Shown one piece after another: positions 41,070 to 44,509 of a stretch of 44,509 nt of DNA (positions are counted from its first letter, which is position 1; each line of letters begins with the position of its first letter). Below the pieces are notes generated by a model. The model worked only from the letters and a program-made list of their open reading frames with translations. It was not told where the DNA came from and searched no databases. The position numbers and the translations under genes are program-made. The stretch covers positions 1 through 44,509 of the forward strand of contig JBECUL010000014.1 in the NCBI GenBank assembly GCA_040225955.1. Direction: 5' to 3'. The stretch comes from Candidatus Asgardarchaeum abyssi. GTDB taxonomy: Archaea; Asgardarchaeota; Asgardarchaeia; Asgardarchaeales; Asgardarchaeaceae.

Positions 41070-44000
41070 ATGATGAGAAAATTGTGGTTTAGAAGGCTTT
41101 TGTCGCTGATTTTAATTATAATTTTAGTATCAAGTCCTCTGTACTCGCTATTTTTACCTTATAGATCAGATTGGGTTATGGAAACTAAAAGTGCAAATAC
41201 ATCTCCAAATCAAAATGCTTTGTCTCTTAATGTATATTCCCAACAGAAAAAAAATATATTTCATAGCAGTCTTGTTTCGCTTCAAAAAACATATGATACT
41301 AACGGAAATAAAATTTCTGATAAATTAGAGAAGGCACTTCTAAATATTTCTAATGATGATAAACTAAGAGTTGGAATTATTTGTTTTTCGAAAGAGGATG
41401 CTAAAGACGTTCTAAATACACTCAAAGAAACGAATATTCCAATTATTGGTTTTTGGGAAAGTATATCCACAATACATATAATCACTACTAAGGCTCAACT
41501 TTCACAATTATTATCCGTAGAATTCAGGAAAATAGCTCTTATATACCCTGCTTGGTATCACGCTAAACCGCTTAATAATATTGCAAATAGACTAACACAT
41601 GTTAGGCCTTTTATCTGGAACACTTATGGGTATATGGGGGATCCTAATTCTGCTATTGCAATAGTCGATAGTGGTGTTGATGATACTCACTCAATGTTGA
41701 GTATTTATTCGGATAAAGACTTCTCTAATCCAAATGTAAAAATTGTTGGATGGTATGACCCCACAGGAACTAGCTTAACACCCTATGATAATGATGGACA
41801 CGGTACTCATGTTGCAAGTATTGCTGCTGGTAATTTTTATGATGGTGATCCTGATGATGATAACCTTACAGAAATAACAGTTGATATAACTTATGTGGAT
41901 GTGGAAAATGATGGAAATGAATATTCATACATAATAGGTTTTTATTTAAACACAACAGGGCTGATTAACGCTACAGTAATCTGGACATCTGATAATCCGT
42001 CAACAGCTTATGTATCAAGTTTGGCTTTAGTAGATCCTAGTGCATCAAGAAAAGCTGAAGATCTAACAGATCCCTTCAATGTAACTTACAATTTAACAAC
42101 AAATAACTTTGGAATATGGCGTGTGATTGTTGGAGTTAGAAATTCAAGTTCAACAGCAAACTCGCTTAAAATGCAAGTAATTCTTGAGGTGCCAGTAGTG
42201 AATTCAAGCGATGGCTACATAGAATACTCTGGTGTAGCTCCAAATGCAAAAATAGTTGCTGTGGCCGCACTAGCTGATGGCTCAACAGCAGACATTCTAG
42301 ATTCACTAAATTGGATATATAATCATGCTGAGGAATATCACATTTTAGTTGTGTCAAACAGCTGGACCATCGTTGATGATTATGGTAATCCAACAACAGA
42401 CCCGGGAATAGAACTTGCTATAAGAAACTTAATTAAGAAAGGTTTAGTTGTAGTAGCTGCTGCAGGAAATTGGGGTAATACCCTATTATCTAATCAAATG
42501 GGCACACCTGCAAATATTGAAGAGGCCATCACAGTTGCTGCAGCAGACAATCTATTAAATATTGCATATTATTCAAGTAATGGACCTGCTGGTGACTGTG
42601 ATGTTATTAAACCTGATATAGCAGCCCCTGGCGGAGACTTTAGTTATGGTGCAATTATTGGTGCTGATACGAACGATTATGAGGAATACGGGTACGAGAT
42701 ATTAAACTCACTGTCTATGCTTCAAGGGACCTCAATGGCAACTCCTCATGTAGCAGGAATTGCAGCTTTACTGGCTCAAGCACTAGGTGGTTATAATAAC
42801 TGGGATTATGACCCTCCAAATAAAGTTAAATCTAAAGCTTTTAAGATAAAGCAAGTTCTGCTAATGACATCTTGGGAAATAAGCACAAGAAATGGTTGGA
42901 AGGATTATAAAGAAGGATTTGGCTTAGTACAAGCCGATGCAGCAATAGAAGCCTTAACAAAAACTTGGGACCTTAACTATGTCGCTAGTGATTATCTTTA
43001 TGGCAAGGACCATCCATTTAAAAAACATGTATGGGCTAGAGGTGTTGATCTATTAGCTGGAGGAAATTATACATTTTACCTTCACGTTCCTGATACTGGG
43101 GATTTCGACTTATACGTTTATGATCCGGATCCCAACGAATATGGTGAACCGGTTCTGGTAGCTTATTCTAATCAAACACAATACGGGGGAACTGAGATTG
43201 TAAACTTTCAACCAACAAAGGACGGAAGGTATTATGTGATTGTAAAACAAGCTGAGGGATATGGTGAGTTTCAATTATCCTCATTCTACCTATCACCTAT
43301 CTACGTTAATATCTTGTCTCCATCTAATAATACATTGACAAATAAAGAAAATATCACAATAAAGTGGGATGTTGAGACAGAGTATACGATAGATCATTTC
43401 GAAATAAAACTAAACGAAACTCTTATACTCTCTAATATTCCAGCAGAGAATCTTAATTCAACCGTTACTCTGCCCATAGAAGGGTTCTGGAAAATAATGG
43501 TAACAGCTGTTGCAACAAATGGTGCTAAAGGATCAAATTATACATTTGTAATGTTGGATACTACTCCGCCCGAGATAAATATCTCAGTGATACACCCTCA
43601 AACAATCGTTGTGTTTAACGTGATGGCGGAAGAAATTATAGTGCCAGAAGGTTCACAAATAGTCATTTCTCTCATGGACAATTTCTATCTAAAGAATGCA
43701 ACATATTCAATAGATAATACTATTAATGAAACGTATGAAATTTCATCAAAATCTTATGAAATTACAATCTCCTCATCCGTGATCCAAGAACTCTCAACAG
43801 GTAATCATACTCTATACGTAATAGCGTTTGATGCAGCAGATAATTTTAATGAAACAATATTCATTATCGAGATTGTGTCCTCATATCCAACGGCTCCAGA
43901 GATGCCTCCATATAAGTATGTTGTCCTTCCATTTGTCTTAATAGGACTATTTTTCGTCGCAATAGTTTACTTTATCTCAACACTTCCTGCTCCAGCAAAT

Positions 44001-44078
44001 ACAATAACAACGGTAATCATTTTGGTATCTACGATGATAGCAGTTATACTTAGAAAAAGAAAAGCTAAAAAGCATTAA
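41070..44078 (+). CDS. Cell-surface S8 (subtilisin-like) serine protease with PPC and Ig-like domains
   Basis: Signal peptide and propeptide, IVDSG, HGTHVA, AAGN, KPDIAAPG, GTSMATPHVAG; ~130-aa insertion after the His motif; DFDLYVYDP (PPC), DTTPPEI and C-terminal TM helices with a basic tail. Confidence 0.95.
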   Translation: MMRKLWFRRLLSLILIIILVSSPLYSLFLPYRSDWVMETKSANTSPNQNALSLNVYSQQKKNIFHSSLVSLQKTYDTNGNKISDKLEKALLNISNDDKLRVGIICFSKEDAKDVLNTLKETNIPIIGFWESISTIHIITTKAQLSQLLSVEFRKIALIYPAWYHAKPLNNIANRLTHVRPFIWNTYGYMGDPNSAIAIVDSGVDDTHSMLSIYSDKDFSNPNVKIVGWYDPTGTSLTPYDNDGHGTHVASIAAGNFYDGDPDDDNLTEITVDITYVDVENDGNEYSYIIGFYLNTTGLINATVIWTSDNPSTAYVSSLALVDPSASRKAEDLTDPFNVTYNLTTNNFGIWRVIVGVRNSSSTANSLKMQVILEVPVVNSSDGYIEYSGVAPNAKIVAVAALADGSTADILDSLNWIYNHAEEYHILVVSNSWTIVDDYGNPTTDPGIELAIRNLIKKGLVVVAAAGNWGNTLLSNQMGTPANIEEAITVAAADNLLNIAYYSSNGPAGDCDVIKPDIAAPGGDFSYGAIIGADTNDYEEYGYEILNSLSMLQGTSMATPHVAGIAALLAQALGGYNNWDYDPPNKVKSKAFKIKQVLLMTSWEISTRNGWKDYKEGFGLVQADAAIEALTKTWDLNYVASDYLYGKDHPFKKHVWARGVDLLAGGNYTFYLHVPDTGDFDLYVYDPDPNEYGEPVLVAYSNQTQYGGTEIVNFQPTKDGRYYVIVKQAEGYGEFQLSSFYLSPIYVNILSPSNNTLTNKENITIKWDVETEYTIDHFEIKLNETLILSNIPAENLNSTVTLPIEGFWKIMVTAVATNGAKGSNYTFVMLDTTPPEINISVIHPQTIVVFNVMAEEIIVPEGSQIVISLMDNFYLKNATYSIDNTINETYEISSKSYEITISSSVIQELSTGNHTLYVIAFDAADNFNETIFIIEIVSSYPTAPEMPPYKYVVLPFVLIGLFFVAIVYFISTLPAPANTITTVIILVSTMIAVILRKRKAKKH

Positions 44079-44123
44079 AATAAATAACATTATTCATTTT
44101 TATTTAAATTCTAAATTCACTAA

Positions 44124-44325
44124 GGTTAGGGGTTCAGTGGATGTCCACATTGGTGGGTGAACATCCACCCTGGGCCACATCAGCCTCAGCTCCCTCTGGG
44201 TTCATAGGGAACAAGTCATCGGTCTCGACCCCGTTCAGGGTAACCCCACAAGCCCCACATCGCAGCGTCCTTTCACATTGCGGTGTCCTTTCGGTGCTTT
44301 ACTCCCACCACATTCGGACACTATC
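44124..44325 (-). ncRNA. Structured RNA with kink-turn, TnpB omega-RNA (IS200/IS605/IS607 right-end)-like, ORF-less
   Basis: GC-rich island in AT-rich DNA. Stems at 44321-44316/44288-44283 and 44168-44157/44148-44137, a K-turn CC-GAU-GA…UGA-GG (44222-44184), an embedded MWGLWGYPERG frame like archaeal TnpB tails, and an upstream TTAAATAT box. Confidence 0.55.
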
Positions 44326-44356
44326 TCAATACTCACAAATGCTCATAAAATATTTA

Positions 44357-44509
44357 ACTGTTTCGGAAGGCGGTTGGTAACATCAGAGAATGGGTGATGC
44401 GCCAAATACATGATTCGCCACCTCCTCGCTCCTTATATTGTTGCCAACGGTCCCTAAGACGTAGCTCAGCATCATTACAAATACATAATCCACACTCTTC
44501 AACCCGTGC
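44357..44509 (-). mobile_element. End of a second IS with probable transposase C-terminus, cut by the window edge
   Basis: Minus-strand frame HGLKSVDYVFVMMLSYVL…SPIL* (44508-44383) resembles DDE transposase tails. The end motif 44376-44398 is 21/23 identical to the outer MITE arm 2566-2588. Confidence 0.55.

Follow-up and report, generated by a model that had tools for sequence, protein, structure and literature searches.

The minus strand at the end of the analysed DNA carries a 243-bp element (44129..44371, including the target G and both CC cores), which is very probably a non-autonomous member of the IS607 family, MITE- or PATE-like, formed by internal deletions of a tnpA-tnpB transposon. 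Its 119-nt 3' part is recognizable from covariation and a K-turn motif as an omega-RNA scaffold. The evidence below establishes the parentage, both ends, some 20 insertions, the conserved fold of the right-end RNA and integration at G-CC with no longer duplication, and the element is a clean, fairly ordinary case of a known type of selfish DNA. It leaves the general picture of IS607/TnpB biology unchanged. What it offers is a natural minimal IS607 unit with exact boundaries (a left end of 44 bp plus a 119-nt scaffold), a predicted GCC target motif for an archaeal TnpB clade of hydrothermal settings and a simple test bed for the recruitment of TnpB in trans that the literature proposes for gene-less elements.

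The element, its copies and its insertion site

The window (the whole stretch analysed, 44,509 nucleotides) is the entire contig C14 of a 2.6-Mb assembly with 34% GC, 189 contigs and 7.8% contamination. GC content was 52% in the element region vs 34% in the genome. The element sits between the contig end and a convergent, uninterrupted host gene (41070..44078, plus strand) for a 1002-aa subtilase-like protease, named from its motifs. Motifs alone also give this protein an N-terminal signal, an inserted domain and a C-terminal membrane anchor.

BLAST of the last 460 bases of the window revealed two separate repeats, one of which is 44371-44129. About 20 copies of the latter were found genome-wide (15 full and about five degraded or split between contigs), with identical ends and unrelated flanks; the full copies show 87-99% pairwise identity. 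In two DNA runs the depth of the element far exceeded that of single-copy flank, mainly in the 3' part, to which related elements contribute. The first-pass annotation read a scaffold freed from its ORF and named as its test the presence of multiple copies in which the scaffold stays constant while the flanks vary. Such copies exist, and each motif it listed is present on the minus strand where it was placed, as is the absence of a tnpB ORF, but they belong to a non-autonomous IS607 transposon that is complete at its two ends. The left end is at 44371, beyond the interval 44100-44357 first delimited, and 18 right junctions, which end in AACCCC, fix the 3' boundary at 44129 rather than at ~44123, so that the predicted guide starts at 44128.

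At the left junction the target G and CC core (44369..44371, minus strand) form a candidate TAM, (H)GCC, as indicated by the junctions, an empty allele and paralogue alignment. GCC was present at 18 of 19 left junctions, and relatives in other archaea likewise begin with GCC. The CC core recurs at both junctions, and there is no target duplication and there are no terminal inverted repeats. A contig in run X20 extends from the protease gene to 44128, then through a single GCC into sequence identical to the flank on C177; it is the empty allele, free of both the mini-element and the adjoining IS. Comparison with this allele gives a net insertion of 240 bp with a CC core (element 44371-44129). 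Rejoining at GCC restored long frames at four other sites, and at a fifth it gave a gap-free alignment to three paralogous sequences. As frame restoration by itself cannot tell a 3-base from a 0-base core, the core assignment rests on the empty allele and the paralogue alignments. IS607 elements carry a core dinucleotide, do not duplicate the target and use a target motif identical to the TAM of TnpB (PMC10690162); the present element matches them in its insertion behaviour.

Host frames are broken by four copies (C9:36871, C39:7036, C110:1746 and C144:1918; a permease, a membrane protein, one ORF and a methyltransferase), which makes the element relevant to annotation of this genome. The copy at C55:414 lies in a sequence that has paralogues at other places in the genome. 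C177 (616-858, 1741-1880) adjoins the window contig across a collapsed IS and carries, some 0.9 kb beyond, a second mini-element copy of the same orientation. Another copy is nested in the left part of a different, decayed IS607 (C53:1-220 and C91:7019-7098, joined by L059). A further insertion site, in L039, has no counterpart in the assembly and hence supplied no empty site. L002 and L031 (Ca. Baldrarchaeum yapensis, of the same phylum) have the same element end and flank, which marks the host as an Asgard archaeon.

Parentage and the right-end RNA

Using the right-end pattern, 33 loci were drawn from named genomes and metagenomes. The parent, represented by L038/L061 of Ca. Baldrarchaeum, is a 2.7- to 2.8-kb element with tnpA, tnpB and a LAGLIDADG-like cargo gene; TnpA of L061 scores 244 bits on NF033518 (cut-off 110), and the parent TnpB has the domains PF01385 and PF07282. 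Our element aligns to it in three collinear blocks. Positions 1-44 (44328..44371, minus strand) are the parent left end (84% over 44 nt, E 1e-8). Positions 54-85 (44287..44318) correspond to decayed tnpB zinc-ribbon codons, the C..CGG..KHRKGQ region (82%, 28/34 identity, E 3e-4 within the 2.8-kb parent). Positions 125-243 comprise the tnpB tail and right end (82% over 119 nt). A TnpB-like tail had been read at 44260-44216, of which only MWG (44249..44260, minus strand) lies in the tnpB frame. It is followed by a one-base frame shift, and the true tail, GVTLNGVETDDL...VDIH-stop, is encoded at 44247-44134 in the next frame and matches the tnpB ends of relatives. In tnpB of C1, L043, L007 and L011, MWG likewise follows the last RuvC motif.

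The left end contains two 10-bp direct repeats (44349-44340 and 44339-44330, minus strand), which are likely to be TnpA binding sites, and a strong promoter-like site (44350..44365, minus strand; BRE 44365-44361, TATA box 44357-44350) at the 95th percentile among best upstream sites scored with a genome-trained matrix. The site had been noted correctly. It had been taken for the own promoter of a free RNA gene; the parent has an equivalent TATA box in its left end, ~40 bp before the tnpA start, and the alignment identifies the TATA box of the element as the parent's presumed tnpA promoter, inherited with the left end.

Downstream of the promoter, three 5' stems (44321/44283, 44309/44293 and 44282/44261) had been regarded as new hairpins. 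As the element aligns to parent tnpB there, the outer and inner stems lie on old coding sequence, the decayed zinc-ribbon codons, while the CGCA/TGCG stem lies in a variable spacer and is absent from several copies. Two of the three stems were fully paired in only 10/15 and 9/15 copies; the small inner stem was kept in 14/15.

Two more independent gene-less IS607 families occur in other archaea (L036, L046, L049, L052, L053, L057; and L047, L060). Their members, of 224-328 bp, have the same ends and different middles, and the scaffold is kept in at least two such families of about 290-330 bp. In the Baldrarchaeum elements L038/L061 the LAGLIDADG-like gene (L061 7508-8146, minus strand) lies between tnpB and the right end, and at L009 (514-1341) such a gene splits the zinc ribbon of tnpB. 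PMC10691335 mentions cargo of meganuclease-like type.

The 119-nt right end (44129..44247, minus strand) is assigned as an omega-RNA scaffold because of covariation across 29 ends and a K-turn motif; together with the parent match, this covariation bears out the earlier proposal of a TnpB-type scaffold derived from the tnpB 3' end. The scaffold overlaps the tnpB tail, stops at the right junction and has a hairpin within 10 nt of its end; an omega-RNA hairpin near the 3' end has been described (PMC10278001). The consensus fold, built from 29 distinct right ends, comprises a long-range closing helix P1 (44247-44242/44134-44129), an inner helix P2 (44231-44227/44176-44172), one position of which shows six pair types, a K-turn arm (44222-44184) and a terminal hairpin of 13 bp in the consensus (44169-44136), all on the minus strand. 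In this fold 97.1% of cells were paired and 17 pairs changed on both sides vs 31-53% and 0-4 in slid controls, although counts of this kind are inflated by kinship, and elements with tnpB contribute much of the signal, which could be inherited. P1 is the long-range GGGGTT/AACCCC pair anticipated in the first-pass annotation; the pseudoknot suggested with it is not needed because the pair nests in the consensus fold. A hairpin from single-sequence prediction (44240-44238/44232-44230) was set aside, since it never varies and competes with the covarying P2. Each of 200 shuffled versions folded less well than the region itself (z = -2.43).

Among gene-less copies alone, transitions at Watson-Crick pairs kept pairing seven times and broke it once (p = 0.035, a small sample), and variable columns made up 36/66 of the middle vs 29/119 of the scaffold (p = 5e-5). 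The K-turn motif itself (C-stem, 3-nt bulge, tandem G.A/A.G, helix), already recognized, is visible at 44222-44184, and the parents keep it with U.U at the third position. Elsewhere in the comparison of copies, the window copy has an A-U pair where most others have G-C. The C-stem and distal helix of the arm were fully paired in 15/15 copies, some of them up to 13% apart. The arm is optional in the clade, since a short hairpin takes its place in some relatives. Binding of L7Ae is reported for archaeal tnpB RNAs with a K-turn. Searches with the K-turn-region pattern gave no match in named genomes.

A proposed guide function and alternative readings

The predicted guide is host flank (44109..44128, minus strand), the first bases past the conserved end, starting at 44128 with TAACCTTAG... 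and of an assumed length of about 16-20 nt by analogy with PMC10690162. Predicted guides differ at every copy. As each is just the flank of its insertion site, the natural target would be the empty allele.

From IS607 biology, the serine recombinase TnpA would act in trans to excise and integrate the element via the CC core. The deletion would have set the left-end promoter ~110 bp upstream of the scaffold, allowing each copy to make an RNA of scaffold plus flank. With this RNA, TnpB of another IS607 copy may cut the empty allele (GCC, then flank), and repair of the cut would restore the element, protecting the insertion. Such a guide step, leading from the promoter-scaffold fusion through the scaffold-plus-flank RNA to cutting of the empty allele by a borrowed TnpB, is proposed tentatively, at rather less than even chances; that the RNA would work in trans with TnpB from another locus is plausible. 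It is possible, if doubtful, that the element lives as a guide-only hyperparasite, in which every copy would express a guide of its own and, in defence of its site, borrow TnpB (perhaps with host L7Ae) from IS607 elements elsewhere, and which would have had at least three independent origins in these archaea. In RNA contigs from two libraries of one sample, depth was low, at ~2.5 for the element and 2-4 for the neighbouring gene, which speaks neither for nor against expression; the contig of the element came from another copy, and contigs cannot give level, strand or ends.

A full-length IS607 tnpA (C44:108-752, minus strand) has Tyr at the catalytic Ser (RVYS), and the tnpB next to it is cut by the contig end. 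The tnpA fragment on C135 keeps Ser (RVSS), the IS607 repeats being collapsed and cut at contig ends. Present-day mobility is uncertain, because the C44 gene is the sole full-length tnpA assembled. The C1 TnpB has its full set of three acidic RuvC residues, and the locus has the first and the last scaffold motif in common with the element; C97 and C135 hold tnpB ends with a 78% similar K-turn arm. Cutting is not assured, since tnpB genes with the K-turn arm encode Gln where the last RuvC Asp normally lies; rearranged catalytic sites are common in archaeal TnpBs and may remain active (PMC10691335). No tnpB with exactly this right end was present in the assembled genome, where repeats are collapsed.

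The main rival contests the guide step and not the identity of the transposon: the RNA may be a passenger with no TnpB user, its fold kept through the right end that TnpA needs and through the youth of the copies. This has about an even chance of being correct. It gains from the lack of an exact cognate tnpB in the assembly and from the nature of the changes, which are mostly transitions (59:10), many of them tolerated as G-U pairs. However, a distant IS607 can be excised with just 40 bp of its left and 60 bp of its right end (PMC10690162), and the right end kept here, at 119 nt or more, is double that requirement; the 5' half of the scaffold lies beyond those 60 bp and was yet kept in three deletion families. 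Retention of the long right end across these families favours a live guide but does not prove it. The pair-keeping bias of 7:1 among gene-less copies and the completely paired K-turn arm of divergent copies likewise weigh against a mere passenger.

The first-pass annotation favoured a domesticated stand-alone guide RNA, equipped with new 5' hairpins and leading a TnpB/Cas12f-like protein, or a nuclease-dead one, to targets in the host or in viruses. A promoter-like site, an intact scaffold and the altered last RuvC motif in some TnpBs of the clade are what such an RNA might show, but its guides vary from copy to copy as insertion flanks do, another population lacks the insertion at this site, host genes are broken by several copies and the 5' stems are tnpB remnants or variable spacer. 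The flank search suggested at that stage also yielded nothing above chance in the genome and nothing in viral contigs: both the right-end pattern and exact GCC plus the first 15 guide bases were absent from viral contigs, and 2 of 17 guides had a 12-nt near match in the genome, neither of which extended (chance level). No regulatory or other chromosomal guide target was found in the genome, GCC-adjacent matches not being above chance length. Domestication is therefore very unlikely. A housekeeping or box C/D-type small RNA, repeated by chance, would account for a motif resembling the box C/D K-turn, but neither the window end nor any of four related loci scored close to the cut-off of an Rfam family, and the alignment places the sequence on IS607 ends and tnpB codons. 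We reject this explanation, whose probability is negligible, in view of the match to the parent and of the empty site.

Related elements and an IS1-like neighbour

As a gene-less IS607 derivative, the element resembles IS607/IStron of C. botulinum (TnpA(S), TnpB and omega-RNA; PMC10690162) in its serine-recombinase parent, in a core dinucleotide at either junction, in a target motif that ends in the core and a scaffold that ends with it, and in a left end of ~40 bp; both lack inverted repeats and target duplication. It differs from that system in lacking proteins and a group I intron, in its K-turn arm and archaeal host and in its core, which in the tnpB direction is CC (target GCC) here and GG (TGGG) there. 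The IS607 version in Asgard archaea follows the plan known from gene-less IS200/IS605 omega-RNA elements; in our incomplete coverage of the literature, no paper on IS607-derived gene-less omega-RNA elements in Asgard archaea was found. PATE-like IS200/IS605 elements of Geobacillus stearothermophilus also consist of a left and a right end without genes, and omega-RNAs dependent on TnpB in trans are often encoded by PATEs (PMC10055086). Those elements have a Y1 (HUH) transposase and hairpin ends, whereas ours belongs to the serine-recombinase branch; a strict IS200/IS605 PATE of Y1 type was rejected because the parent encodes a serine recombinase, and the element is PATE-like in its working.

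SMN1 of Sulfolobus islandicus is likewise archaeal, gene-less, similar in size, multi-copy and moved in trans (320 bp, mobilised by ISC1733; PMC3718332). It has a different parent element, and the comparison here covers host, gene content, size, copy number and mobilisation. Archaeal sotRNAs (PMC4615843) are structured non-coding RNAs over the tnpB tail that overlap intact genes, whereas our element is gene-less and has no Rfam match.

Beside the left end lies the end of an unrelated IS1-like element (44376..44509), with an inverted repeat starting GGTAAC, a 7-bp target duplication (44375-44369) and its other end on C177. This IS1-like element has a zinc ribbon and HTH at its N-terminus, target duplications of 7-8 bp and 99-bp MITEs, and about 41 of its ends occur genome-wide (window 44376-44509 and 2566-2588; C5, C10, C16, C24, C34, C40, C46, C81, C93, C177 and others). 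Both the element and its MITEs go in at a set distance upstream of BRE-TATA promoters: 21 of the 41 ends were accompanied by a promoter-like site in the offset range 6-10 vs 11.7% of intergenic positions, with the offset window picked after inspection and the 41 ends non-independent. Insertion may be tethered by TBP/TFB. No paper on targeting of promoters by archaeal IS was found in the same incomplete literature coverage, and this preference could outrank the mini-element in interest. The family landed twice in BRE-TATA register at the left end of the mini-element, a hint that the cell does recognise this promoter. In two independent cases the end of the IS1-like target duplication falls precisely on the GCC core of an IS607 mini-element (window 44369-44376; C24:867-971).
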